Origin: a virus
Taxonomy: Duplodnaviria > Heunggongvirae > Uroviricota > Caudoviricetes
Virus record (IMG/VR): IMGVR_UViG_2802429245_000005
Direction: 5' to 3' (one strand)
Length of the DNA stretch: 41,556 bases
In this document: positions 1,327-14,432 of the stretch, in pieces
Layout of the letters: each line of letters opens with the position of its first letter
How positions within the stretch are numbered: position 1 is the first letter of the stretch
Translations under genes and position numbers: made by a program
The notes under the pieces: model-generated
Seen by the model: the letters and a program-made list of their open reading frames with translations, nothing else
Databases searched by the model: none
Told to the model about the DNA's origin: nothing

Positions 1327-1824
1327 TCAGTGCCACGATTTTTGCTTCTTCAGTGAATCGTATTGCTGTTCGCAGGATTCTCCTGCAATCCGATACTTTT
1401 CAGCCTCAGCTGCTGTTGCGTTGTAAACTCGGTTGCTTTCTTCAAGCATGTCGGCGAGCACACCGATGACCTTGCTGGCTGGCGTGCCAGTGGGGAAAGA
1501 TCCGGTATAGTGTTCGGCGAGTCGCTTGGTTTTGTCAAGCTCGGCGCGCAGGCTGTCAGCAGCGGCATTAGCATGCTCAGCATCAACACGCGCCACATCG
1601 ATACGGGATTGTGCTTCACGTTCAATTTGTGTTTTCTCCTGATCACGTTGTGACCTGGCCTTATCATCAGCCTGTTTCTGATCTTCCTGTGCCTGCGCAT
1701 ACCCGGCGTCGTACTGACGAATGCCGTGTGCATTCCAGGCTACAACTCCTGATATGACCAGAACAGCAAGCATCGCCATGATAACCAACTGTTTCCAGTA
1801 TGCTTTTGCGAATGCCCAGATCAT
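1327..1824 (-). CDS. Rz-like i-spanin (lysis)
   Basis: N-terminal TM helix then charged coiled-coil body. Start overlaps endolysin stop (ATGA at 1821-1824). Last gene of the lysis cassette. Confidence 0.6.
1350..1598 (-). CDS. Rz1-like o-spanin lipoprotein embedded in Rz in another frame
   Basis: Internal start gives [17 protein letters not shown] (lipobox LTAC) followed by a Pro/Ser-rich segment, entirely inside the Rz ORF. Start codon choice (1598, 1583 or nearby) is uncertain. Confidence 0.4.
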   Translation of the reverse strand: MWRVLMLSMLMPLLTACAPSLTKPSDSPNTIPDLSPLARQPARSSVCSPTCLKKATEFTTQQQLRLKSIGLQENPANSNTIH

Positions 1825-2450
1825 AACGCCAGCACCTTACTGGCAGTGATGTATCGCGCGCGCCGGTCATCAATGCCGTTCCGGCCACCATTGATAAGCA
1901 GAGTTACACGTGCAATATCTCCGGTATACTTCATGCAGCCTTTGCTGGAGAAGAACCACGCCGCGCTACGAGCCGCGTATTCGTCCTGCGCAAGCAGTTC
2001 AGGACTCTCCAGCAGGTCAACCTTAAGACCGTTTCCACAGTCACGATAGTTATTCAAACCGGTAATCTGGATAAGTCCGCGCCCACGGTAGTTCCAGCCA
2101 TCGCCAGGAGCATTGTTACCCATGCGTTTGCTGTACACCAGATTGGCAATCGCTCTCTGGCGCTCAGGTGGCAATGGTGGTTCGCCTGCGCGTCGCCCCA
2201 ATGCGTTGGCCTGTCCCTGAGTGAGACGCCCAGCCCGAACAAAGTTAGCCAGTCCGCTGACGCTGTAGTTGAAATTTTCCTGCAACCGGGTGAAACCTCC
2301 AGACTCATGCCCGACCTGAGCAATAAACATTGCCTGATCTTCTGGTTTGCTGATACCAAACTCTTTCATCGCAGAAGTTATATGCGAGAACCAGCGTGCG
2401 GCCAGCGCCTCGCTAATACCAGCAGCTCGCTGGAATTGTTTAATCTCCAT
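1821..2450 (-). CDS. Endolysin, glycoside hydrolase family 19 (chitinase-like) lysozyme
   Basis: Internal ATG at 2448-2450 gives [12 protein letters not shown]... with [18 protein letters not shown] and NY motifs typical of GH19 phage endolysins. The longer ORF to 2615 has an atypical N-terminal extension. Confidence 0.75.
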
Positions 2451-2643
2451 GTTTAGACCTCGATACTTTAAAAATTTGAACGACGTTACCGCGCGTTTTA
2501 ATAACCGCAGCGAGCATGACAGCGTTGATAATGACCTCAGATAAATCCACAGCCATTGGCGTGCGGAACCAGATTGCATAGGCAACACGAACCGGAATAC
2601 TGGCCGCAGCAACAATCAGGAAATAAGCAAGCCACCCCCCCAT
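2440..2643 (-). CDS. Small two-TM membrane protein, candidate class II holin or antiholin
   Basis: 67 aa with two hydrophobic helices and a charged C-terminus (KVSRSKHGD). Overlaps the endolysin start by 11 nt. RBS is weak. Confidence 0.4.
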
Positions 2644-2733
2644 CTTCGATGTTGAGATCCGTTACGCCGGAATGTGACAACACGAATTGCTATGCCAGTA
2701 CAAATAACTGCATTGGTGATAAGCAAAAAAAAC

Positions 2734-3138
2734 TCATGCGTTACCATCGTCTTTTCTCCCCGGAATTAACTCGCGTGGATTATCGGAACGGTGGTAGAGC
2801 CATATACCAATACGCACAGCAACAATTGCTGACACGAATGCGCCAGCAGAGAAAACAATCCCTTTTTCAAAAGAGTCCTGCGTGATAGTAGGGATCAGGC
2901 TGGCTATGCCGATAAGAATTGATGCTGCTGGTTTATAAAAAAGAAGGCCGCAGAGAAAGCTAAGCATCGACAAGAGTACACGACGACGAATGGGATACTC
3001 TACCGCAGAGGTAACAAAAATTACCGCTCCAGCCAAAGCCCCCAAAGCAACCTCAGGAGGAACTCCTGCTATCACCGCCGCCAGAGAACTCATGCTAAGC
3101 CACTGATTTAAAGTTTCACTGGTTAGTTGAGCTGACAT
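2734..3138 (-). CDS. Multi-TM membrane protein, putative holin
   Basis: ATG at 3136-3138 preceded by GGTGG. About 134 aa with 3-4 predicted hydrophobic helices, immediately upstream of the endolysin. Confidence 0.5.
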   Translation of the reverse strand: MSAQLTSETLNQWLSMSSLAAVIAGVPPEVALGALAGAVIFVTSAVEYPIRRRVLLSMLSFLCGLLFYKPAASILIGIASLIPTITQDSFEKGIVFSAGAFVSAIVAVRIGIWLYHRSDNPRELIPGRKDDGNA

Positions 3139-3358
3139 GTTTTCCACCGTTTATATGCATAACTACCTCCTGAACAGTAAAGCATTATGCATGATAAACC
3201 ATTTATGGTTTTTTGTTACTTCAACATCGTCAATCCCCTGTTTTCATGCCGATAATAAGGCTCACCTTTTACATAACACTGAAGAAACAACAGTACAGAA
3301 ATGATTCAAACTATGGAGATCGGGTTGAATACCGCGCCATCAAATGGCGCGGTAGCGA

Positions 3359-3684: not shown

Positions 3685-6426
3685 TTACACAGCACAAATC
3701 CTGATCGTTGCTGTGATATCAGTTTCAGTGCCATTATTGAGATATAACCTACCGCCTACAATTGACATCCCAATTTTGGTAGAAACTTCTTCATCTGCAG
3801 ATGTCACCACCACGTTTGTTTTATTGTAATTACCAAGCGGAGATTCATCAGTCGAATGCCCTGGCCTCAATATCATTCCTACACCTGCAAAGAAATTAGG
3901 GTTCCCATTATTTATAACATCCACACAATAAGATAATGCGCTTTTACTAAGTGGGATGGATTGACTTGTATGTGCCTTAACCCACATTTCCCATACGTAT
4001 TCACTTTTACGTATCGCCCCCTCACATGAACCAGATGCATGGAATAACTTTCCTGATGATACAGTGTTATTGGTGCCAACAAGAATCATCTGATTTCCAC
4101 CACCAAAGCCAAAGTTATCACCAAGAGATGGTCCACCATTAATCCTTAACATATATGCATCAGTACTGCCTGATGAGGCGTCAGAGTTATCTATATATAC
4201 AGTGCAATCACTTATAAGAACGCCATCAATCTTATCTGGCGCAACAGTATTAGTTTGGACAACGACGAACTCTCTGGTGGTAGATTTTGCCGAACAACCT
4301 TTAATAATTGTTGGTGTTTCAAGAGTATATGTTTGAGTAATAAAAATGAAATTACTAGGACGAAGCTTCCGATTAACAGCATTTGTTGCTTTCCACCATT
4401 TATTGCTTGATTCGGTTGTTTCGCTAAAGCCATCAATATAGTGAGTATCGGTAATAGTAATTCCGCTACCATAATACAAACGAATCGGAAGGTTGCTAAA
4501 TCCTCTAATCTCGCAACCAGATACTATCTCATTAAAACCACGTATAGTTGCGCCATAAAAACAGTCAACTGCCACATTGTCTTTATATTTAGACTCTGCG
4601 GCACCACCATGACTACCAAACCCATAGGAAAATTCAGTCCATCCTTCCGATGGAAATATAATCCCACCAGTATAACCAGTTCCGCCACCACGCATTGTAA
4701 TGTTGGTTACATTATTGTAGAGAGAACTCCAGTTACTCCCTCCAATATCAACACCACGCCTACAACAAGATGCATTGATATTGTCCACAGTGCAGTAACT
4801 GCTATTGGAAACAGAAACAGCATTACCTGTACCACCATCACCATTGAAAACTCTATTGATTCCATACAGAGATGTATCACGAACAGTGCATCTTAAGCAG
4901 CCTAACAAGGTAATCCCAGCATTCGGGAAATTTTCCACACTAGCGAAACTGGCAATACCGTTTACGCAATATTCGAAGACAACCCCATCATAAGCTTTTT
5001 GTCCGCTAGTTGCATTGGTAACTAACCCGTGTATCGTCCCAACATGAAAATCTCCAGAAATATTAAATGTAGCAGGATAGACAGCCCAGGCCTCAGCTTG
5101 CCTAACCAAACGAAATGTATCTCCTGCAGCAGGTTTATTTGGGAATCCAGTGTCAGCATTACTACCAATAGTAAATGTTTTTGTGTCATCATCATATGCT
5201 GTAACCATTTTGGTTATACCAGCATTATCTCCCGTTAATCCAAGAATTTTATAGAGTGCATCACGAGGTGGTGATGTCACTGAGAAATTTGTAGATGTAA
5301 ATGATTGCCCACTAGATGCGCCAGTAACTGTAACTGTAATATTCCCTCCTGAACGGTAGTAATAATATGCATCCTGATCTAATGTCACATTATTTCCACT
5401 AAGTGAAACGACTTCAACAATTTGCCCTTCCTGCCAACTTCCTCGGTTATCTCCACGAACAAGGTGGTTATTACGAATAACAAGCAAATCTCCGACAGAA
5501 ATATCAGACACATCATCAAGAGTCACAGTCTTTTCGCCCAATGATATATCTCTCGTTATGAAATTATGCAATTTAGTACTTGCAATTCCACCAAGCTTTA
5601 TTGCTGAACCTTCATATCCTACAACATTATTTGTGCAGAGCAATTCAACCTTTCCTGATGCCACCCAATCGAAGCAACCATATGGAATGGAAATATCTAT
5701 TTGTGAAAACAGGTACTTTCCTGCTGTCCATTCCAAACGCTTTCCGTTAGATGCGCAGTAAATGATGGCATTTGTTATTGCGTCTGTATCGTCAGTAATG
5801 CCATCCCCTTTTGCACCAAAATCGCGAACATTGACGATATCCCGCATCTTATCCTGGAACGTTCTGTATACTGCTCCAGAACCATACTGAATAAACAAAC
5901 CAAAACCACCAACAACTCCGGCGATTGCAGCATCGACATAATTACGCATTGAGCGATTATTTACAGCATCCTGCTCAAGTGATGGATCTGCAAGGTTAGA
6001 AATTCTGTTTTGTTTTGCATCGTAATATTTTGCAAGCAGAGAGGGCTTCATCAATGCACGTCTGAACCACCCAAAACATTGCTGGATCAGCATCGTCAGA
6101 TAGTCAAAGGCATCCTCATGCACTTCGGGGAAAAATTTTCCCTGATTGCGAAGGTCTGTCTCCTGCACTACATCAAGCACACGATCTATCGTAATTCGCC
6201 ATCCAGCAGCAAGCGGAGACGGAAGAACCACAGAACCGCCACTATAAGTGCCCGCCCCAGTTACCGTATAACCGGTATCCAGAACCAATTCTGTTACGTT
6301 CCCGTTCAGGTCAGACACCTGAACAACCAGGTCTGATTTTCTGAAAATTCGAAAAGTATACGGAAACGATGTCGTAACGCCGTTACCTGTGTATTCGTTG
6401 TGGTCAACTTCGGTTGAGACCGTCAT
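3685..6426 (-). CDS. Tailspike with N-terminal virion-attachment domain and pectate-lyase-like beta-helix receptor-binding/depolymerase domain
   Basis: 913 aa. RBS GGAG 9 nt upstream of ATG (6424-6426). VRDFGAKGDGITDDTDAI motif typical of right-handed beta-helix glycanases. Downstream two-thirds is AT-rich by eye. Confidence 0.85.
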   Translation of the reverse strand: MTVSTEVDHNEYTGNGVTTSFPYTFRIFRKSDLVVQVSDLNGNVTELVLDTGYTVTGAGTYSGGSVVLPSPLAAGWRITIDRVLDVVQETDLRNQGKFFPEVHEDAFDYLTMLIQQCFGWFRRALMKPSLLAKYYDAKQNRISNLADPSLEQDAVNNRSMRNYVDAAIAGVVGGFGLFIQYGSGAVYRTFQDKMRDIVNVRDFGAKGDGITDDTDAITNAIIYCASNGKRLEWTAGKYLFSQIDISIPYGCFDWVASGKVELLCTNNVVGYEGSAIKLGGIASTKLHNFITRDISLGEKTVTLDDVSDISVGDLLVIRNNHLVRGDNRGSWQEGQIVEVVSLSGNNVTLDQDAYYYYRSGGNITVTVTGASSGQSFTSTNFSVTSPPRDALYKILGLTGDNAGITKMVTAYDDDTKTFTIGSNADTGFPNKPAAGDTFRLVRQAEAWAVYPATFNISGDFHVGTIHGLVTNATSGQKAYDGVVFEYCVNGIASFASVENFPNAGITLLGCLRCTVRDTSLYGINRVFNGDGGTGNAVSVSNSSYCTVDNINASCCRRGVDIGGSNWSSLYNNVTNITMRGGGTGYTGGIIFPSEGWTEFSYGFGSHGGAAESKYKDNVAVDCFYGATIRGFNEIVSGCEIRGFSNLPIRLYYGSGITITDTHYIDGFSETTESSNKWWKATNAVNRKLRPSNFIFITQTYTLETPTIIKGCSAKSTTREFVVVQTNTVAPDKIDGVLISDCTVYIDNSDASSGSTDAYMLRINGGPSLGDNFGFGGGNQMILVGTNNTVSSGKLFHASGSCEGAIRKSEYVWEMWVKAHTSQSIPLSKSALSYCVDVINNGNPNFFAGVGMILRPGHSTDESPLGNYNKTNVVVTSADEEVSTKIGMSIVGGRLYLNNGTETDITATIRICAV

Positions 6427-6530
6427 GTTAAATCTCCAGATAGTCGCAGCACCCGTTGCGCCGCATATCTGGTTATTCTATTACCTGAAAAACCACATAT
6501 GGATAGAAAGACTGTAAATACGAATAGATA

Positions 6531-6545
6531 TTACCTTTCAGGTAA
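6531..6545. promoter_or_regulatory. Palindromic operator-like site TTACCTTTCAGGTAA
   Basis: Exact TTACC-N5-GGTAA between the divergent tailspike (start 6426) and gene 6622. Confidence 0.6.
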
Positions 6546-6621
6546 TTTGCAAAACGTGCTGGATAGCAAACAAATTATTTGCTACTGTATAAATATACAG
6601 TTATTGCATGGAGAAGATAAG

Positions 6622-6879
6622 ATGCAGCAGTATCACTATCCACTGGAAGACGGATTTACCGAAAGGATTCACACGCCGGGAGGCGTCAGATCACTGGTGG
6701 AGGGATCGCACTTGATGAAATTACTCCGGGATCTCGATAAGGATGGATTTAATGTCGATGGCCCACTTGCCGAACTGACTGCACTGATTAACTACGTCAC
6801 CAGCTCACAGATGTCTATGCAGGATCTGCAAACACATCTCGACTATTGTGCCGAACAATTACGAAAACAAACCCGGTAA
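6622..6879 (+). CDS. Small protein homologous to the C-terminal domain of the BRO-N antirepressor at 8028-8723
   Basis: ATG at 6622 with GGAGAAG upstream. Aligns with the antirepressor C-terminus (LMKLLRDLDKDGFNVDGPLAELT...DLQTHLDY versus LMNLLNQLQEDGHDVSGAAAELT...DIQTHAEY). Confidence 0.55.
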   Translation: MQQYHYPLEDGFTERIHTPGGVRSLVEGSHLMKLLRDLDKDGFNVDGPLAELTALINYVTSSQMSMQDLQTHLDYCAEQLRKQTR

Positions 6880-6886
6880 ATTTAAA

Positions 6887-6902
6887 GGCCGCAAGAGCGG
6901 CC
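6887..6902. terminator. Hairpin between convergent genes 6622-6879 and 6902-7630 (possible bidirectional terminator)
   Basis: GGCCGC-AAGA-GCGGCC with T-rich flanks on both strands. Confidence 0.4.
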
Positions 6903-7630
6903 TATCGTTTCGCTTTGTGCTCGTCCCAGCACGTTTTGCACCATGCCATTAAGCCGTCCGCATTTTGATTATTAGGGTAAAAGCTGGTTCGTTTTCTGCG
7001 GACATTACAAATTGGGCACCACTTCATATGACGTGTATTCTTTGGGCCATCGAGACACCTTGCACACCACTTAGTCAATCCATCTGGATTTTTTGACGAT
7101 TTCCTGAATTTTTCATATGGAAGGTTTATTCTGCATCGCAAGCACTGCTTGCTACCGCTTGAAACTCTGTTAGCTGATTCTTCTTTTGGCGGCGATACAG
7201 AAGATATTCTTGCTGGCTCTGATACTGCCTGAGGTGCTTTTTTAAATGACTGAGACGATATGTCATCACCAGGGAATCTTCCATGATATGCCGGACGCGT
7301 TGACACTCCAGGTGGAAGCTCAGCTGTAAACGGCTTTGGCTGAATCAGTTGCCTCTCTTTTGCTAACTCCTGCTGTTTATAATATGTCTGGATTACCGCA
7401 CTATCATAAGCAGGAGGTGCGGAAATATTAGGCGCATTACCTCCAGTTTTTTGAAACTGAGTAGAGGTGTGTTCTATCACCTGTGTACGATTAATCGTTA
7501 TCTCCCCATCTTCGGTCTTTATCGTTTTGTTATGATTAACGACCGTACGATCAGAGATCTTAGTCTTGTTCTGGTTGATAACGTAAATAATCACCGTAAC
7601 CACACCAACAACTATCCAGAAAACTTCCAT
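6902..7630 (-). CDS. Membrane-anchored protein with two tandem CxxC...WCxxC zinc-ribbon-like repeats
   Basis: RBS GAGGAAAAG before ATG (7628-7630). N-terminal TM helix, Pro/Ser-rich linker, repeats CLRCR...DGLTKWCARC and CPICN...DGLMAWCKTC. Operator motif at 7651-7665. Confidence 0.6.
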   Translation of the reverse strand: MEVFWIVVGVVTVIIYVINQNKTKISDRTVVNHNKTIKTEDGEITINRTQVIEHTSTQFQKTGGNAPNISAPPAYDSAVIQTYYKQQELAKERQLIQPKPFTAELPPGVSTRPAYHGRFPGDDISSQSFKKAPQAVSEPARISSVSPPKEESANRVSSGSKQCLRCRINLPYEKFRKSSKNPDGLTKWCARCLDGPKNTRHMKWCPICNVRRKRTSFYPNNQNADGLMAWCKTCWDEHKAKR

Positions 7631-7650
7631 TGCTTTTCCTCACAATAACA

Positions 7651-7665
7651 TTACCTTAAAGGTAA
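7651..7665. promoter_or_regulatory. Palindromic operator-like site TTACCTTAAAGGTAA
   Basis: Exact motif 21 nt upstream of the start of minus-strand gene 6902-7630. Confidence 0.6.
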
Positions 7666-7743
7666 TATCTTGCTTTCAGGTGATCAAGCATTAAACGCAA
7701 CCAACCAAATACGGTTGATTTTAATATTTATTCGCGTTTATCA

Positions 7744-7758
7744 TTACCTTTGCGGTAA
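7744..7758. promoter_or_regulatory. Palindromic operator-like site TTACCTTTGCGGTAA
   Basis: Exact motif at the head of the structured leader upstream of the antirepressor gene. Confidence 0.6.
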
Positions 7759-7792
7759 ATTTACATCGCACTCCTCTTGTGCCATAGTAATC

Positions 7793-7816
7793 GGGCACTG
7801 GCAAAATCCAGTGCCG
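7793..7816 (+). other. Perfect 8-bp stem-loop (GGCACTGG / CCAGTGCC) in the antirepressor leader
   Basis: Read directly; lies between the operator at 7744 and the terminator at 7851. Confidence 0.5.
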
Positions 7817-7850
7817 GGATTGGCGTCCCGGATTACTAAAAGGCGCATTC

Positions 7851-7870
7851 ACCGCGCAAGCGGTTTTTTT
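7851..7870 (+). terminator. Intrinsic terminator-like hairpin plus T7 tract in the antirepressor leader
   Basis: ACCGC-GCAA-GCGGT followed by TTTTTTT. Confidence 0.5.
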
Positions 7871-8027
7871 ATGCGTATAGCACGGCCACATTCGTATTAT
7901 GGTGGGCTGTGTGGGGGCACCGAAAGGTGCGCCGGGTCCTTTTAGCCGGTTACGCCAACCCTGCACAGTTCACCACCAACCGATTGGCGTCGGTAGTGGT
8001 GATTAACCAGACTAAAAGGTAACCACT

Positions 8028-8723
8028 ATGACAGCTACAAAAAGCACGTCCATTTTTTCTTTCGAATCCCAAGCCGATATACGGGTAATCGTCATTAATG
8101 GTGAGCCATGGTTTATCGCTTCAGATGTTTGTCGGGCTATAGGCATAGCAAACCATCGAGATGCTGTTCGAAAACTTGATGATGATGAGAAGGGCGTCGC
8201 TTCAACCGACACCCCTGGCGGTGAGCAAGAATCGATCATTATCTCCGAGTCAGGCCTCTACACACTGATCCTCCGCTGCCGCGATGCGGTGACACCAGGC
8301 ACTATCCCCTACCGCTTTCGTAAATGGGTTACAGGTGAGGTTCTTCCTCAGATCCGCCGCACCGGAAGTTACATTAAAAACTCGCTCCCGCAGGAAGAAC
8401 GCATAAAGATGGTTGCCGACCAGGTTGCCAACGCCACGGCGTCAGCAGTAATGCAGGCGATGAAGATAGAGAACAAAACCTACAGCGCCCCGCTGAAGCC
8501 AGGATACCGCAGTCTGATTCACTCGCCGTCTGGTGTTCTCGGCCTGACGGAGAACTCACTGCTGATGAATCTGCTGAACCAGTTACAGGAAGACGGGCAT
8601 GATGTATCGGGCGCGGCGGCGGAGCTGACCACCATGTTCTGCTACATCGTCGGTGTGAGTAAATGCCTGCGTGATATCCAGACGCATGCGGAGTACATCA
8701 ACGACAAGGCTGGGTTCTTCTGA
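8028..8723 (+). CDS. Antirepressor, BRO-N (Ant-type) N-terminal domain plus C-terminal domain
   Basis: N-terminus FSFESQADIRVIVINGEPWFIASDVCRAIGIANHRDAVRKLDDDEKG matches the Bro-N fold signature. RBS AAGG before ATG at 8028. Confidence 0.8.
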   Translation: MTATKSTSIFSFESQADIRVIVINGEPWFIASDVCRAIGIANHRDAVRKLDDDEKGVASTDTPGGEQESIIISESGLYTLILRCRDAVTPGTIPYRFRKWVTGEVLPQIRRTGSYIKNSLPQEERIKMVADQVANATASAVMQAMKIENKTYSAPLKPGYRSLIHSPSGVLGLTENSLLMNLLNQLQEDGHDVSGAAAELTTMFCYIVGVSKCLRDIQTHAEYINDKAGFF

Positions 8724-8789
8724 CGGGCGGCGGCACAGGGATGTGCCTTTAAAATAATCATTGGCGATGTGATGTAGATTCGCGTAATA

Positions 8790-8804
8790 TTACCTTAAAG
8801 GTAA
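8790..8804. promoter_or_regulatory. Palindromic operator-like site TTACCTTAAAGGTAA
   Basis: Exact motif immediately after a -10-like TAATAT (8785-8790) and 27 nt before ATG 8831. Confidence 0.6.
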
Positions 8805-8830
8805 ACCATGTGTTTACATGAGGAGGAGAT

Positions 8831-9040
8831 ATGGGATTTTGGTTCGCTCGTACAAAAACGAGGGATAATGCACCCAGCCCTCAGGCAAAAAATGCAGAAG
8901 TTCCGGCGTCAGCGCAGGTTAACAAGCGTGGTGGAGTATATATCTCATCACAGCAAATTTCTGAGCTTCCTGAGGTTAAGGAGATGCGTCGTCTCGCTGC
9001 TGCAATTGTTAAACAGGATCTTGCCACTGTAAGGAAGTAG
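8831..9040 (+). CDS. Small hydrophilic protein, first gene of an operator-controlled accessory cassette
   Basis: Strong RBS GAGGAGGAG before ATG at 8831. Operator motif at 8790-8804. Stop TAG overlaps the GTG of the next ORF. Confidence 0.55.
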   Translation: MGFWFARTKTRDNAPSPQAKNAEVPASAQVNKRGGVYISSQQISELPEVKEMRRLAAAIVKQDLATVRK

Positions 9041-9906
9041 TGTTGCTAGCTCTTCTAATTATCCCAATCCTGGTTAGCGGTTATATTATGATAACCGCTA
9101 ACCAGTATCATTATTTCCGTTTATACCGACACGAAGGCCAGCTTCTTTATATGAAAGTAGCGGCACTAGGTACATATTGCCTTGTTGCATCAGTAATAAT
9201 TGCAGCCGCTATAAAATATAAATGGCCTGATTTTCACCTAGTTCACGATATGGTGGAAACTTTTAATGTAACATCAAAACCAGAAACAGATAGAATTTAC
9301 ATGTGGCTGCTTCTTCTCTCAGCCACATCCATTTGCTTCTCTTTGTGTTATGTGTCTGTTGTGTGGGTGAAAGATTTTCTTCTTGGTTGTTTTTATAAAC
9401 GTGATATTTACGAGCAAAAAACAGAGGCAATGAAGGCCAGAGTACTGCGAAAAACTTACTCGCAGGGTTCTTTAGACTTACTATTGCTTGATGCTATTGA
9501 ATCGGATCCTAAACGACCAATGCTGATTACTTTATCATCAAACAAAGTGTATGTTGGAATAATAAATGGTTCTGGTGAACCAACGGAAAATCAGGGTCCG
9601 CATCAGCACATATCTTTTGTTCCTTTAATGTCAGGATACAGGAACAAAGAAAACTTATCTGTCACATTCACTAATGCTTATCCAGGAGAAATACAGGTCA
9701 AGCGGACTGCAGCAATAAGAGGAATTAGCAGAAAGAAAGTGCCAGGACTTGAGATCATGGTGTCTATTGACGAAATAAGTTATATATCATGGTTTGATTT
9801 TGAAGTATATAAAGCAACAAATAACAAAGTAGAATCCAGGGGGCACGTTATTCGTGTTACCAAAAATGGAAGAAATATATATCAAAGAAATAGCAAAAAA
9901 GAATAG
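9040..9906 (+). CDS. AT-rich integral membrane protein (three N-terminal TM helices plus soluble C-terminal domain); accessory gene
   Basis: 288 aa ORF. GTG at 9040 is coupled to the upstream stop; alternative ATG at 9088 lies in the loop of an 11-bp inverted repeat. AT-rich by eye. Intrinsic terminator directly after the stop. Confidence 0.6.
   Translation: MLLALLIIPILVSGYIMITANQYHYFRLYRHEGQLLYMKVAALGTYCLVASVIIAAAIKYKWPDFHLVHDMVETFNVTSKPETDRIYMWLLLLSATSICFSLCYVSVVWVKDFLLGCFYKRDIYEQKTEAMKARVLRKTYSQGSLDLLLLDAIESDPKRPMLITLSSNKVYVGIINGSGEPTENQGPHQHISFVPLMSGYRNKENLSVTFTNAYPGEIQVKRTAAIRGISRKKVPGLEIMVSIDEISYISWFDFEVYKATNNKVESRGHVIRVTKNGRNIYQRNSKKE
9074..9101 (+). other. 11-bp perfect inverted repeat around a candidate start codon
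   Basis: TTAGCGGTTAT-ATTATG-ATAACCGCTAA; the ATG at 9088-9090 is in the loop. Confidence 0.5.
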
Positions 9907-9927
9907 CCCGCGCCGCGGGCTTTTTTG
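9907..9927 (+). terminator. Rho-independent terminator after the accessory membrane-protein gene
   Basis: CCCGCG/CGCGGG stem followed by TTTTTT, immediately after stop TAG at 9904-9906. Confidence 0.7.
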
Positions 9928-9998
9928 TGGACGAAACAAAAGTCAGTGCTACACTCATTGACGCCACATTGAGATGGCTTATAGATGGAAATTTCACA

Positions 9999-10160
9999 AT
10001 GAAAAAAGCATTTGCTGCACTGTTCGTTTTGTTGTCTCTGGTAGCTTCAACTCAGGCCTTTGCCGGTCGTTGTCAGCACGACAGCGATACTGCTGCTGAC
10101 GGCTCCCGCTGCGGTGGGCGTTCTGCGGATTCCCGCCCGGGCGGCGGTGGCATCCGTTAA
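9999..10160 (+). CDS. Small secreted Cys-containing peptide (signal peptide plus about 31-aa mature part)
   Basis: Internal ATG at 9999 gives MKKAFAALFVLLSLVASTQAFA followed by GRCQHDSDTAADGSRCGGRSADSRPGGGGIR. RBS is weak. Confidence 0.35.
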   Translation: MKKAFAALFVLLSLVASTQAFAGRCQHDSDTAADGSRCGGRSADSRPGGGGIR

Positions 10161-10189
10161 AAACAAGGCCGCGAAAGCGTCCTGTTTGA

Positions 10190-11041
10190 TCACTGTGCAG
10201 TTTTCGCTGATCGATTTTCAGCTCTAAATTCAAGAACCGTTTCAATATTTCTTTCCTTCAGCATATCAATAACATTTTTATTCATTTGACTATCACTGGT
10301 TAATAACTGGTAAACGTTGCTTCTCTCTTTATCAGAGTTTTCTTTAACAGCTGCTTTGCATGCCAAATGCTTATTGAAATTTTCTACATCGCTAGTACAG
10401 GAATTTACGGCTGCTGATGAAATATCAGACGCTGAAGAAACACCATCATCCAAACGTTTTATAGCATTTTCTATACATGAGTTAAGGGAATAAACGACAA
10501 CTGAGCGATACCCTTCAGACGCACACCATTCTAAATTTCTTGAAGGATCGAGTGGTTTTACTTCGCTGGATTGAATTAACTTGTCAAAAACTGACTTATA
10601 TTCAATCTGTTTTTTATCTATAGCCCATACTTCAGTAGCTGATTTATAATTCCCCGTATGCCTATTAACATCAAATCCATGTTTTATAAGCAAATCTGCC
10701 CATGAAAGATTTATTGATTCATTGTTATGAGGCCATTTTCCTGTCAGAACCGCCCCCATAGACCCCATATATCCGCCATATGATGGTATAGCACCATGGC
10801 TCAGTAACTTCTCAGCAACCACAGGGCAATTAATTACATAAGAGGCGTAAAGCCCATTCCATAAAGCCCCTCTATAGTAATCGCCACGATTAGGTTCTTT
10901 TAAGTCGATAGCCTTTGATAATTGTTCACACGTTTTGCATGCATCAAAGTTATCCTTATTGCATTGCAATGAACTGGCAGCTGTAGGATTTACAGAGACT
11001 ATTGAAAGCACTATGCCAAAAAACAAATTTATTTTTTTCAT
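10190..11041 (-). CDS. AT-rich secreted/periplasmic protein of unknown function
   Basis: N-terminal signal peptide MKKINLFFGIVLSIVSVNPTAAS. Start codon sits 1 nt after the stop of the upstream 1129-aa virion protein gene. AT-rich by eye. Confidence 0.6.
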   Translation of the reverse strand: MKKINLFFGIVLSIVSVNPTAASSLQCNKDNFDACKTCEQLSKAIDLKEPNRGDYYRGALWNGLYASYVINCPVVAEKLLSHGAIPSYGGYMGSMGAVLTGKWPHNNESINLSWADLLIKHGFDVNRHTGNYKSATEVWAIDKKQIEYKSVFDKLIQSSEVKPLDPSRNLEWCASEGYRSVVVYSLNSCIENAIKRLDDGVSSASDISSAAVNSCTSDVENFNKHLACKAAVKENSDKERSNVYQLLTSDSQMNKNVIDMLKERNIETVLEFRAENRSAKTAQ

Positions 11042-11042
11042 C

Positions 11043-14000
11043 CTATTTCATCTGCTCTTCAACTTTATTTAGTAATGGTGATATCGCCCACAGATTCTGA
11101 AAAGGTAGCATTTTACGGACAGCGTGGGTTTGCTGGCTGTCAAATTCTCCGTTAAGTACACCATTTGCAACCGTCGCGGCATCACCGCCAAGATCAAAGG
11201 TAGGACCAAGTAAAGCACCAATAGCATTACGACTCTGAAACCTTGATACCGGAGGCGCACCAAACATCGCGCCAAGACCAAACCTACCGCCGCTTATGTT
11301 CTCAACGGTATTCAGCGGCTCAGAGAGCCAGCCAAGCATTCCGCCCCGGTCGATCCCCTCTTTCACAAGGTTATTCCAGCTGTAGTCAATATCGCGACCG
11401 CTTAACTTCTGTTTCATCATATAGACCATTGAGCCAAGCGCAATCGTGCCAAGCGCACCAAGATAGAATGCAGCATCGCCCTGCTGGATACCAGATACCA
11501 GCACCCTGTTATGCTGTGCGAAGATAAACGTTTTAAACTGCGTGATCATCTTCCAGCCTTCTTTACTAAAAAACAGCGGGGTATCACCTACGCCAGGCGT
11601 TACAATCACTGAGTCTACATCTTTCAGCACTGCAGACTGGAAAATCTCTCTAGCGAAACGGTCATCCCACAGATGACTATGCCCGGTTAACAGCCCGTCC
11701 ATATCCTCTCCGTGCTTCCCGAATTGCTCCCCGATTCGGCGCAGAACATCTTCATTGATGCCGACCTGTGCCATCTTCCGCATTTCACTTTTGGAGAGCG
11801 TGCCACCAGCAGAAACTTTGCGAGCCGCGTCAAGTATCCTCGACTGCACTATCATCCCGGACCATGATTTAAGTGCGCTGTTCCACTGATTCATCAGCGT
11901 CCAGTTACCGAATTTCTGCGTCATCCAGTTCAGACCTCGCTCAGCGGCGCTTCTCCGGCTATAGGGGTCAGTAAGATCCGCTATAGCCTTTGTACGCGTA
12001 GACAGGACATAATCAAGCCCAACGGCCATTTCTCGCAAATCCCTGGTTGCAATTTTCACTGAGTCCATATTTTTAAGCATGCTTACCATTGGTCCGAGAG
12101 ATTTTCTCAGGCCATGCTGCATCATCGGTCGCATCAGATCAGTTGCAGCGGAGACAGTCATTCCACCAAGCAAACGGAGGAAGTTAATATTCCTAGCAAC
12201 TCGCCCGGCACGAACAAAGAAACTGCGTGGATCTTGAGGTGCACCGTAAGTACCAAGCAGTCGATCACGCATAGCCGTAATATCCCTAATATCAGCCTCC
12301 CGTTGCTTCTCAAGAACTGCACGTCGTTTAGGTGTTTTAGCCTCTTTTATTAGCCGGGTATATTCCTCACTAACCTGACGGATTTGCTCCCCCATATCTT
12401 TACGGCCAAACTGCGCAGTCAGCTCAATTTCTGGTGCCACCTGCCGGAGATAACTTTCCATGATGTAGTTAACATCTGATTCAAGAAAATCTTCTATACG
12501 CTCATCAGGAATAAGCAGCGTTCTGCTTTTAGTGAAACCAGCCCGACCAACGAGTCTCTCTGGGATAATATCGGCTGGTACAAGCCCGGAAGGTGCGCCT
12601 ATTATTTTATTCACGATCTCGTCAGCAGCGTCCTCTGCTTCCTCTCGGGATAGAGGCTCCATCTGCTTCAGTGCTCGTTCGCGGCTTGCATTCAGCCTTG
12701 TGGTTGAATTTGCCCGTTTTTGCAGTCGGCGAAGCTCAGAACGATATTTCCGTGGATTATCCAGCAACTCCATATGGCGCTGATAGACAGGAAGCTCACT
12801 CTTTGCCTGCGCTATATCATCAAGGCGTGTTTTAAGGTCAGAGCTTTCTTTCATCATTCTTGCCTGAAGTTTTTCTGATGAAGTCTCGGCCAACTCTTTT
12901 TCTATTCTTGTAAGACGCGCCTGTGTGTCAGTCTCCTGAGATATAAGCTTATTTCGTTTATCCAGTTCTTCCATGAGTAGAATTTTTTTACCAGACCATT
13001 TCTCCGCTTCAGCGATTTCACTAGCGAGAGCATCAGCGCGCGGTGCCGATTCCTCTGCAGTTTTTAGCAATGAATTTATCCTTTCAATTCGCTGACCTGC
13101 TTTGTCAGCACCTTTGGCACTAATCCCTTGTATCCAGTTGGCAATTCGCCCTCTGAATTCAGTGCGGTCGGAAAGTATCTTATCGAACTTATAAATGCGG
13201 GGAAGATAACTTTTCGCCGTCACGACATCGATATCTTCAGGAAGGATCCCCAGTTCCTGCATACGGGCTTTTGTGGTCTCGAAAATGGGGCGGATTCTGG
13301 CGGCTGCTTGTGAAACCTCAGGAATATCACTCTGATCACCACGGCGCATAGCCATGCCAACAGCTTCATTGAAATCAATAAAGTTCATCCTCTTCACGCC
13401 GCGGGCGCTAACAGATTTGCTGTACTGCTGGTAAGCATCACGAGTAGCTTCCATCTGCTTATAAAGCATGGCGTCGTATTGCTTAATCTTAGTCTCGACT
13501 GCTGTAAACGTAGCCAACCCCTCATCATTTTTGGCGAAGAAATAGTTATTTTCGGCAAGCTGCTGGTTAATCTGACGGGAGACAAGAGATGGTGATTGCG
13601 CCAAGCGGCCAGCAGGAGTGACACTCAACGTTTTGTTAGCAAGTCCAAGTCCAGCGAGCTGTTCCTGATCGAGTGTGGTATTGAAAACCTGAGCTGCACC
13701 AATGCTTTGAGGAGAATCCATACCTCGCAAATGATTACCTACTGAGTTAACCACTGCCTCGCGCGCGCCAGGTCCAGCAAGTAGCTGTGCACCAGCACCA
13801 AGAATCCCACCAACGAGAGCATCAACAACAACGTTCGATACGCTCTCCATCGGTGAGCGAGCTTCCTGAGTGGCCTGTAATGCGGCCTCTGAAGCAACAC
13901 TGCCAGCAGCATTCGCCATGGCAAAACGCCCGGCTGTTTCTGCAATACGACCGCCACGAACGACAGCGCCGAACGGAATAAACATAGAAATCGCATTGAA

Positions 14001-14432
14001 TGGATCTGCTAATCTCATTGCTACAGAAGAGACTGTACCAGCAAATCCCAAGCCTGAATTGTATTCCATGTCAGCTCTCTGCTGATCGATTCGATGTTTA
14101 ATTGCCATTGTTTCTTCAGGCGAACCGGAGTTGATAAACGAATCTGCAAAATCTTCATAGCCTTTAATATCTGCTGCATCGTTATCAAATGGGTTATATC
14201 CTTCAACCCTGTCAAACTGACTGAAAGGAGCACTGGCAATAAAGCTACCCAGCGTGTTATCTATACGAAATGCTGCTTGTCTAGACCTTTGAACGCGTTG
14301 ATCACTGGTAAATGGGTTCACAGCAGAAAGCAAAGAAGGTGTTTCCATATAGAAATTACTGTCATCAGGTGCTGCTATTTGCTGAATATCCTCGCCAAGC
14401 AACTCTTTAGGATCCTGTTCATATATCGGCAT
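11043..14432 (-). CDS. Large internal virion (ejection/injection) protein with long charged coiled-coil region
   Basis: 1129 aa, in the late structural operon. Glu/Lys/Arg-rich coiled-coil central segment. Start overlaps the stop of the upstream gene. Confidence 0.75.
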   Translation of the reverse strand: MPIYEQDPKELLGEDIQQIAAPDDSNFYMETPSLLSAVNPFTSDQRVQRSRQAAFRIDNTLGSFIASAPFSQFDRVEGYNPFDNDAADIKGYEDFADSFINSGSPEETMAIKHRIDQQRADMEYNSGLGFAGTVSSVAMRLADPFNAISMFIPFGAVVRGGRIAETAGRFAMANAAGSVASEAALQATQEARSPMESVSNVVVDALVGGILGAGAQLLAGPGAREAVVNSVGNHLRGMDSPQSIGAAQVFNTTLDQEQLAGLGLANKTLSVTPAGRLAQSPSLVSRQINQQLAENNYFFAKNDEGLATFTAVETKIKQYDAMLYKQMEATRDAYQQYSKSVSARGVKRMNFIDFNEAVGMAMRRGDQSDIPEVSQAAARIRPIFETTKARMQELGILPEDIDVVTAKSYLPRIYKFDKILSDRTEFRGRIANWIQGISAKGADKAGQRIERINSLLKTAEESAPRADALASEIAEAEKWSGKKILLMEELDKRNKLISQETDTQARLTRIEKELAETSSEKLQARMMKESSDLKTRLDDIAQAKSELPVYQRHMELLDNPRKYRSELRRLQKRANSTTRLNASRERALKQMEPLSREEAEDAADEIVNKIIGAPSGLVPADIIPERLVGRAGFTKSRTLLIPDERIEDFLESDVNYIMESYLRQVAPEIELTAQFGRKDMGEQIRQVSEEYTRLIKEAKTPKRRAVLEKQREADIRDITAMRDRLLGTYGAPQDPRSFFVRAGRVARNINFLRLLGGMTVSAATDLMRPMMQHGLRKSLGPMVSMLKNMDSVKIATRDLREMAVGLDYVLSTRTKAIADLTDPYSRRSAAERGLNWMTQKFGNWTLMNQWNSALKSWSGMIVQSRILDAARKVSAGGTLSKSEMRKMAQVGINEDVLRRIGEQFGKHGEDMDGLLTGHSHLWDDRFAREIFQSAVLKDVDSVIVTPGVGDTPLFFSKEGWKMITQFKTFIFAQHNRVLVSGIQQGDAAFYLGALGTIALGSMVYMMKQKLSGRDIDYSWNNLVKEGIDRGGMLGWLSEPLNTVENISGGRFGLGAMFGAPPVSRFQSRNAIGALLGPTFDLGGDAATVANGVLNGEFDSQQTHAVRKMLPFQNLWAISPLLNKVEEQMK

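Follow-up and report, generated by a model that had tools for sequence, protein, structure and literature searches.

The stretch of DNA analysed here, called the window, comprises 41,556 nucleotides (nt) of the IMG/VR record IMGVR_UViG_2802429245_000005 and represents an Escherichia coli prophage that carries a compact two-gene cassette (8785-9927) among its structural genes. The cassette encodes a small soluble protein of 69 amino acids (aa) and, downstream of it, a larger inner-membrane protein, in which three predicted transmembrane (TM) helices precede a cytoplasmic domain predicted to adopt an Sm/Hfq-like fold. With a probability of roughly 40%, the cassette functions as a toxin–antitoxin-like or abortive-infection conflict module, expressed autonomously as prophage cargo. 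According to sequence comparison and structural modelling, a conflict-type prophage cassette built from three TM helices, a predicted Sm-like domain and a dedicated small partner is a new architecture. The only trace of it found in print is a single unannotated line, system #57, in a supplementary table.

The prophage is a podovirus of the epsilon15/TL-2011b/phiv142-3 type, which in strain STEC346 has integrated next to yfgI. In the window, host genes are followed by a lysis cassette, a tailspike gene (3685-6426, minus strand), an accessory region of mixed orientation (6499-11041) and the gene for an internal virion protein (11043-14432, minus strand). The two-gene cassette lies within the accessory region and is oriented opposite to the structural genes. 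Among 5,426 complete E. coli genomes, 28 contain the entire cassette and 460 contain its flanks; phage records match the flanks only. In phage TL-2011b, the same slot (locus L012, 3172-3871) contains a 59-aa open reading frame (ORF) overlapping a YafO-family toxin gene, which indicates that the slot exchanges small two-gene cassettes. Features expected of a moron or cargo element are all observed, namely a fixed slot with conserved flanks, patchy presence in collinear phage genomes, a promoter (a weak match to the consensus) and terminator of its own, and deviant composition. The last feature had been attributed to the whole cassette in an original prediction made from the window's sequence alone; in fact, AT-richness is confined to the large gene, whose GC content is 0.373, compared with 0.476 in the small gene and a window mean of 0.479. 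The accompanying proposal of horizontally acquired cargo in an accessory slot agrees with the genome counts and with the different contents of the slot in TL-2011b. The two genes form one self-contained unit that moves horizontally and occupies a cargo slot of variable content.

The location, flanked by the genes for the tailspike and the internal virion protein, together with the small size and multiple TM helices of the large protein, which are holin-like in this respect, might suggest ordinary phage lysis or morphogenesis genes. This is the outcome that the original prediction had named as fatal to its own proposal. The prophage, however, possesses a complete lysis cassette elsewhere (1327-3147), composed of spanin (1327-1824), endolysin (1821-2615) and holin (2734-3147) genes, and neither cassette protein has a PHROG or Pfam match to holins. 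The two-gene cassette is also absent from most related prophages, runs against the structural genes with promoter-like signals and a terminator of its own, and has counterparts in unrelated phage types as well as in non-phage loci. Given the separate lysis cassette of the prophage and the dispensable, promiscuous nature of the module, a lysis or morphogenesis function is effectively excluded.

To judge from the loci compared, the small and the large gene are an obligate pair. A small ORF is found directly upstream of the large gene in all 19 distinct, mostly enterobacterial lineages (gap of -1 to 21 nt) and in about 39 of 44 independent loci from species-representative genomes of Alpha-, Beta- and Gammaproteobacteria (gap of -1 to 38 nt), and it is likewise present in P2-type, phiES15 and other distant members. 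Among the approximately five exceptions in the set of 44 loci, two appear decayed. Signs of decay are visible at the chromosomal loci of Vibrio jasicida (L087), where the small gene is frameshifted, and of a Lautropia metagenome-assembled genome (L096), where truncation leaves the large gene with 110 aa and its partner is disrupted.

The soluble partners, 57-115 aa in size, are homologous across contexts and have a common core, h-[RK]-V-x-G-R-G-x-V-x-h ... A-x-x-I-V. In the window, the small gene (8831-9040, plus strand) begins with ATG, and its product, with an isoelectric point of 10.4, consists of a disordered N-terminus, a beta-hairpin with an invariant RG turn and a long C-terminal helix. 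The two proteins of the cassette belong to the PHROGs families phrog_5739 and phrog_3630, the latter containing the large protein (E 1e-113), and no function is assigned in either. A 74-aa ORF overlapping the small gene in another frame (8808-9032, plus strand) lacks conservation of its own and is in all likelihood spurious.

The close family of the large protein comprises 28 clusters, all from Enterobacterales except for two distant members. A profile search extends it to at least 2,340 cluster representatives (50% identity) at E ≤ 1e-3 and 907 at E ≤ 1e-10, nearly all of them full length (240-310 aa). The family spans three proteobacterial classes and lacks any family annotation, yet it recurs in slots in which temperate phages keep anti-phage genes. 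One epsilon15-like prophage, from Providencia, contains the homologous pair. Lambdoid prophages of Citrobacter and Pectobacterium carry it adjacent to the integrase, Cronobacter phage phiES15 has it between integrase and attP, and in a Pseudomonas phage it is situated at the genome end; the pair also occurs beside a CI-like repressor. In the P2-like phages SEN4/5, in Klebsiella ST15-OXA48phi14.1 and in a 186-like prophage, it lies in the interval from replication gene A to the portal gene. Overall, at least four types of temperate phage carry the pair in accessory slots; many other family members are found in chromosomes without a recognisable prophage.

Such a scattered, mobile distribution resembles, by analogy, that of toxin–antitoxin-like cassettes. 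It would also be compatible with a pure addiction or stabilisation module, which would maintain the prophage or island by post-segregational killing and have no direct anti-phage role. The occurrence in chromosomes, prophages and islands of three proteobacterial classes, the order of a small upstream and a large downstream gene, the palindrome over the promoter described below, and the YafO-family cassette in the TL-2011b slot all speak for such a module. It is nevertheless an unlikely explanation: neither protein is similar to known toxin or antitoxin families, the toxicity of the large protein is a conjecture by analogy, and the enrichment of the family in a validated defence hotspot of P2 phages fits an anti-phage role at least as well.

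This hotspot, the gpA-gpQ region of P2, has been shown experimentally to be a reservoir of anti-phage systems (Rousset et al. 2022, Cell Host Microbe, PMC9122126), and the concept of TM effectors is discussed in the same paper. Its Table S5B lists 169 cassettes, including system #57 with 75 occurrences, no Pfam domain and "2 TM + signal peptide" in protein 1. Protein 1 of this system is 37% identical to the large protein over its full length (BLASTP, E 8e-56), and protein 2 matches the profile of the small partner (hhalign, 96% probability, E 4e-9); both cassette proteins are homologous to the representatives of system #57. A distant single-gene relative is system #43 of the same table, with 93 occurrences, and approximately 170 E. 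coli P2 hotspot loci in the published catalogue carry family members. In the Klebsiella phage ST15-OXA48phi14.1 (L014, 4853-6492), a 69-aa ORF and a gene for a 477-aa TIR protein, matching the bSEFIR model (E 7e-103), follow downstream of the pair. The pair and bSEFIR stand side by side, so that two cassettes are stacked in this hotspot. Membership of the pair in a Klebsiella TIR system was considered and rejected, since the TIR protein in question is the known single-gene defence bSEFIR and a TIR neighbour is lacking at most of the pairs. The accessory slots, the P2 hotspot and the bSEFIR neighbour favour the exclusion, abortive-infection or toxin–antitoxin-like role put forward in the original prediction, although homology to known families of these kinds is lacking, as detailed below.

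The large gene (9043-9906, plus strand) encodes 287 aa from a TTG start. It had previously been read as a 288-aa ORF from GTG (9040-9906), with a TAG/GTG overlap taken to imply translational coupling. The TAG stop codon of the small gene (9038-9040) and this GTG (9040-9042) do have one base in common in the window, but comparison with relatives places the start elsewhere. In alignment A6, which comprises 20 distinct homologous sequences and is ungapped across the gene junction, the start column contains TTG in 18 sequences and GTG in 2. The in-frame codon preceding it is a stop in three lineages, namely TAA in the Citrobacter/Pectobacterium group and TAG in L047. The conserved start is therefore TTG 9043 and not GTG 9040, so that a 2-nt gap to the stop of the small gene replaces the overlap. 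According to A6, a relatively weak Shine–Dalgarno sequence, AAGGAAG (9031-9037, plus strand), ends 5 nt before this TTG. The protein begins with the invariant sequence LLIPILVSGY, and LLIPILVSGY...GQLLY is the most conserved segment of the whole large-protein family. The correction of the start matters, because the RefSeq annotation by PGAP (NZ_CP091044, L001 12452-13207; 252 aa, corresponding to window position 9151) cuts this segment and removes the first TM helix, and it was rejected for this reason. ATG 9088, which had been suggested as an alternative start and lies in the loop of an RNA hairpin, was also rejected, as the codon is not conserved among relatives.

The membrane part (9043-9369, plus strand) contains three hydrophobic segments, TM1 (aa 1-22), TM2 (aa 35-60) and TM3 (aa 86-110), in agreement with the three N-terminal helices originally described. 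They were assigned from Kyte–Doolittle hydropathy, the distribution of lysine and arginine, and the helices of an AlphaFold2 model (aa 2-119). Just after TM3 there are 8 lysine or arginine residues versus 4 aspartate or glutamate residues, and this positive excess predicts an N-out, C-in topology.

An inner-membrane protein with three TM helices could also mediate superinfection exclusion, in which a constitutive membrane protein blocks genome entry, as with P22 SieA, HK97 gp15 and T4 Imm, while the host survives and the small protein serves as a cofactor or regulator. Autonomous expression signals of the moron type and the use of accessory slots in several phage types are in line with this possibility. 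Moreover, one lambdoid prophage with a homologous pair (L005) also carries SieB, indicating that such prophages do accumulate exclusion genes. Known exclusion proteins, however, are usually encoded by single genes, whereas the pairing with a soluble partner is strict here. A large conserved cytoplasmic domain with invariant polar residues, combined with measures that lower expression, is more typical of a restrained toxic effector, and the many members in chromosomes without a recognisable prophage do not fit well either. No Pfam match such as SieB (PF14163) and no PADLOC match was obtained, and all matched PHROGs are without function; SieA, HK97 gp15 and T4 Imm were not compared directly. Overall, such non-lethal exclusion at the membrane is considered improbable.

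The three TM helices and the predicted C-terminal domain of the large protein together provide the first structural handle on the family, in addition to the obligatory partner. In the AlphaFold2 model (21-sequence alignment, predicted local distance difference test score 74), the helical membrane part is followed by two linker helices and then by an N-terminal helix and five bent strands. The latter elements (approximately aa 145-252; 9472-9795, plus strand) form a predicted Sm/LSm/Hfq-like domain, as the model contains the elements that define this fold, a helix at the N-terminus and, after it, a strongly bent antiparallel sheet of five strands. A variable, low-confidence insert (aa 216-236) separates strands 4 and 5. 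The family-invariant residues K168, Y170, P194, S197, G198, R200 and Y213 all lie within this domain, and so do the family motifs [RK]KVYVG, GEPNE, PxxSGYRDKDxL and SxSxFDF. The Sm1/Sm2 signature is not recognisable at the sequence level: Pfam LSM/Hfq models match neither the window protein at E ≤ 1 nor 42 diverse members at E ≤ 0.01. A PDB sequence search gave no match for the large protein, and a Foldseek comparison with viral predicted structures returned only low-TM-score, non-informative matches. The earlier description of this domain as having no recognisable motif is accurate for Pfam and PDB sequence searches, but it did not anticipate the predicted Sm/Hfq-like fold.

The predicted fold could be employed outside conflict as well. 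In a non-conflict type of lysogenic conversion, the large protein would be a membrane-tethered Sm-like factor, for example a minimal MscS-like ion or solute channel or a membrane RNA chaperone for host or prophage transcripts. The N-out order of three TM helices and an Sm-like domain is like that of MscS, as known in general, the Sm fold is classically RNA-binding, and many chromosomal copies have housekeeping neighbours. Searches gave no match to MS_channel domains and no profile similarity to MscS, and lysogenic conversion of this kind is considered quite improbable.

The synthesis of the large protein appears to be limited by several elements, one of which is an RNA hairpin on the sense strand, within codons 10-21 of the large gene (9070-9105, plus strand). 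It begins about 30 nt into the coding sequence and has a perfect 15-bp stem, rather than the 11-bp inverted repeat noted initially, with the loop ATTATG (9085-9090). It can alternatively be described as 18 nt at 94% complementarity, and its conserved core comprises 12 bp (9073-9084 with 9091-9102). The folding z-score is -4.9 in a 111-nt context, with 0 of 200 shuffled sequences folding as well, and RNAalifold applied to a 135-nt region yields exactly the same helix and no other. Essentially all enterobacterial lineages, at 39-100% protein identity, retain the hairpin, with folding energies of -9 to -25 kcal/mol.

Pair counts in the ungapped alignment point in the same direction. The 12-bp core is paired in approximately 98% of cells, and the full 15 bp in 88%, a value that falls to 17-60% in controls with the 3' partner shifted by 1-3 columns. 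Two stem pairs exhibit two-sided switches (UA 12, CG 6, AU 1; and CG 8, UA 5, UG 5). One-sided changes are nearly all G·U wobbles (29 cells, versus 5 broken cells in the core), a pattern that fits sense-strand RNA structure and not a DNA palindrome. Because the 5' arm encodes the invariant LVSGY, a coding-aware control was conducted, based on the fraction of sequence pairs that share an amino acid but differ in its codon. This synonymous diversity is 0.29 for the arm codons and 0.54 for the other 173 codons (one-sided Mann–Whitney p = 0.0015). The lowest 10-codon window of the whole gene is at codons 11-23, and Ala19 is encoded by GCT in all lineages. The hairpin is not seen in distant members (P2-type, phiES15, Pseudomonas and others), where z-scores range from -0.3 to -1.9 compared with -7.8 in the window. 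Judged by this sequence comparison, it is a regulatory addition under selection that is specific to the enterobacterial subclade.

A terminator scan flags the hairpin as terminator-like. It could act by partial termination or attenuation, as an element for processing or stabilising the mRNA, so that the levels of the two genes become uncoupled, or as a brake on early elongation. Each of these roles would result in less large protein relative to the small one, the same direction as that of the translation signals. The small gene has a strong Shine–Dalgarno sequence, GAGGAGG (8820-8826, plus strand), with GAGGAGG or AGGAGG at this place in most lineages, and an ATG start, whereas the large gene has the weaker AAGGAAG and TTG; as read from these signals, the asymmetry of expression favours the small protein. 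In the minimum-free-energy structure of the window, sequence beyond the hairpin pairs with the ribosome-binding site and start codon of the large gene; as this pairing is not conserved, it was dropped.

The presumed promoter of the cassette includes the -10-like hexamer TAATAT (8785-8790, plus strand). The proposal that this hexamer is functional receives divided support. It matches the consensus at only 8 of 12 positions and was not reported by a promoter scan with a 9-of-12 threshold, but relatives have TAATAT, TAAGAT, TACTAT or TACGAT at this position, that is, always TAnnAT, across four different left flanks. The hexamer ends in the AT of ATTACC. The palindrome, TTACCTT-A-AAGGTAA (8790-8804, no strand), is perfect and constitutes a candidate operator, as foreseen in the original prediction. 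It persists where the upstream flank diverges: L028 and L032 have unrelated sequence upstream of it, yet ATTACCTTAAAGGTAAACC is retained. In L035 it reads TTACCC..GGGTAA, a compensatory change from T:A to C:G, and in L053 ATTACC-TTTTT-GGTAAT. By this sequence criterion, the palindrome is the left edge of the mobile unit. The conservation of TAnnAT is consistent with a real -10 element; transcription would then start within the palindrome, a position that would favour a DNA operator. At L044 and L049, about 20 nt upstream of the Shine–Dalgarno sequence of the small gene, there is a different inverted repeat, ACAGC...GCTGT, whose arms vary between loci. Its occurrence at the position of TTACCTT/AAGGTAA suggests a regulatory element that is conserved in position and divergent in sequence. 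At the other end, an intrinsic terminator (9905-9927) consists of a stem (9905-9921) of 7 bp, 6 of them GC pairs, followed by a T-run, and it is terminator-like on both strands. The strong ribosome-binding site, the two ORFs and the terminator from which a self-contained unit had been proposed are all present in the window.

In the conflict module favoured here, the small soluble protein would be produced in excess and would restrain, or act as a sensor for, a scarce inner-membrane effector. The TTG start, translational coupling and the hairpin would keep the potentially toxic membrane protein at a low level, and the palindrome over the -10/+1 region would function as an operator, possibly for the small protein. 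The Sm-like domain would drive oligomerisation into a ring, bind a cytoplasmic ligand or nucleic acid, or do both. Phage infection would then lift the restraint, allowing the membrane protein to compromise the inner membrane, so that the infection is aborted or the incoming phage is excluded. The selected intragenic hairpin, the gene pairing and the predicted structure make the module directly testable as a defence or toxin–antitoxin-like candidate.

A bolder version of this mechanism, based on the structural model, holds that the large protein founds a new class of immune or conflict effectors. A membrane-tethered Sm-like ring would bind a cue, either a nucleotide or a nucleic acid (for instance RNA or DNA of a phage at the membrane), and would then gate or disrupt a pore of 18-21 TM helices, with the small partner as trigger or brake. 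In the enterobacterial subclade, the hairpin and the A/U-rich tract that follows it in the module's own mRNA resemble an Hfq-type binding module and could be an autoregulatory site for the protein's own Sm-like domain. Such a class is rather unlikely, but, if real, a membrane-bound Sm-like ring sensing nucleic acid would put one of the most ancient RNA-binding folds to a new use.

Several observations weigh against a conflict function. Oligomerisation, ligand binding, toxicity and the interaction between the small and the large protein are all putative. Both window proteins, together with 42 or 45 diverse relatives, yielded nothing meaningful in Pfam, NCBIfam, PADLOC and PDB sequence searches, and no homology to a known defence, toxin–antitoxin or exclusion family was detected in Pfam, NCBIfam or PADLOC. 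In particular, PADLOC-DB v2.0.0 gave no match for the window proteins or for the P2-type and phiES15 pairs, and a single chance-level match to AbiEii (E 0.009) among 42 diverse family members. Structure prediction, which had been proposed for both proteins, was informative for the large one; the fold of the small one has no match in structure comparison, DNA-binding folds included, which makes a role as a DNA-binding antitoxin conjectural. The absence of the hairpin from distant members implies that it is not essential to the core function of the module. Moreover, the systems tabulated as tested in PMC9122126 contain no motif of the family, so the module has apparently been catalogued only, with no reported phenotype, and no functional report on the family was found in the reachable literature, recent E. 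coli defence screens included.

Gene neighbourhoods outside Enterobacterales add to this caution. Among the 150 nearest ORFs at 29 de-duplicated loci, the families that recur most are defence-type ABC ATPases (AAA_21/AAA_15), which occur at about 4 loci and match models of AbiL, AriA and GajA, together with SMODS cyclases, present at 2 loci, and transposases. At these loci, no phage hallmark family recurs and most neighbours are unrelated housekeeping genes, so guilt by association is weak there and the association with defence is modest.

The accessory region of the window contains further genes around the cassette. Upstream of it lies a gene for a full Bro-N/Ant antirepressor of 231 aa (8028-8723, plus strand; Pfam), and a separate 126-aa ORF (6499-6879, plus strand) matches the C-terminal Ant-like part only (phrog_450), perhaps as a gene remnant or as the product of gene splitting. 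A 242-aa AT-rich cargo protein (6902-7630, minus strand) has an N-terminal TM helix and repeated C-terminal cysteine motifs (KWCxxC) that match endonuclease VII and Lar-like zinc-ribbon PHROGs; its full-length family is phrog_6762, for which no function is assigned. On the other side, a 53-aa protein (9999-10160, plus strand) with a signal-peptide-like N-terminus and a tail rich in glycine, arginine and cysteine belongs to phrog_14503 ("membrane associated protein", moron category), and in approximately 460 E. coli genomes its gene borders the cargo slot as the conserved flank on the right. Another AT-rich cargo gene (10190-11041, minus strand), which separates the slot from the gene for the internal virion protein, encodes a 283-aa protein with an N-terminal signal peptide, which belongs to phrog_6118, also without an assigned function, and has no Pfam, NCBIfam or PADLOC match.

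Among known systems, the closest counterpart of the cassette is system #57, which has the same gene pairing and likewise no Pfam domain in either protein. It resides in P2-like myoviruses, whereas the window cassette is found in an epsilon15-like podovirus, and it represents another subclade, which, to judge from related P2-type loci, is without the intragenic hairpin. Its protein 1 is listed with two TM helices and a signal peptide, in contrast to the three TM helices assigned here.

Type II toxin–antitoxin operons, such as the YafO-family cassette of TL-2011b, offer a broader comparison. The bicistronic arrangement with a small gene abutting or overlapping a larger downstream gene, the promoter palindrome, the mobility, the patchy distribution and the residence in prophage cargo slots are shared. 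Homology of either protein to type II families was not found in Pfam, NCBIfam or PADLOC. As regards the autoregulation typical of such operons, the palindrome is conserved with one compensatory variant, and the small protein matches no DNA-binding fold. Furthermore, instead of a soluble RNase or kinase, the downstream gene here encodes an integral membrane protein with a predicted Sm-like domain.

Lambda RexAB and the membrane effectors of CBASS and Pycsar combine a multi-TM inner-membrane part with a soluble partner, and both the prophage-borne pair and the proposed membrane damage are comparable. Relative to such two-component membrane-effector systems of abortive infection, to which no homology was detected with PADLOC, the soluble partner of the present cassette is tiny, the sensor-like cytoplasmic domain is located on the membrane protein itself, and no signalling enzyme is associated.

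Compared with the Sm/LSm/Hfq superfamily, the predicted domain differs in being fused behind three TM helices, in its variable insert between strands 4 and 5, and in conserved motifs of its own (KVYVG, GEPNE and SGYRDKD); the formation of a ring and the binding of RNA are conjectures derived from the model. The order of parts is nevertheless familiar from MscS, in which an N-out protein of a size similar to that of the large protein also places three TM helices before a small beta-domain of the Sm-like class.

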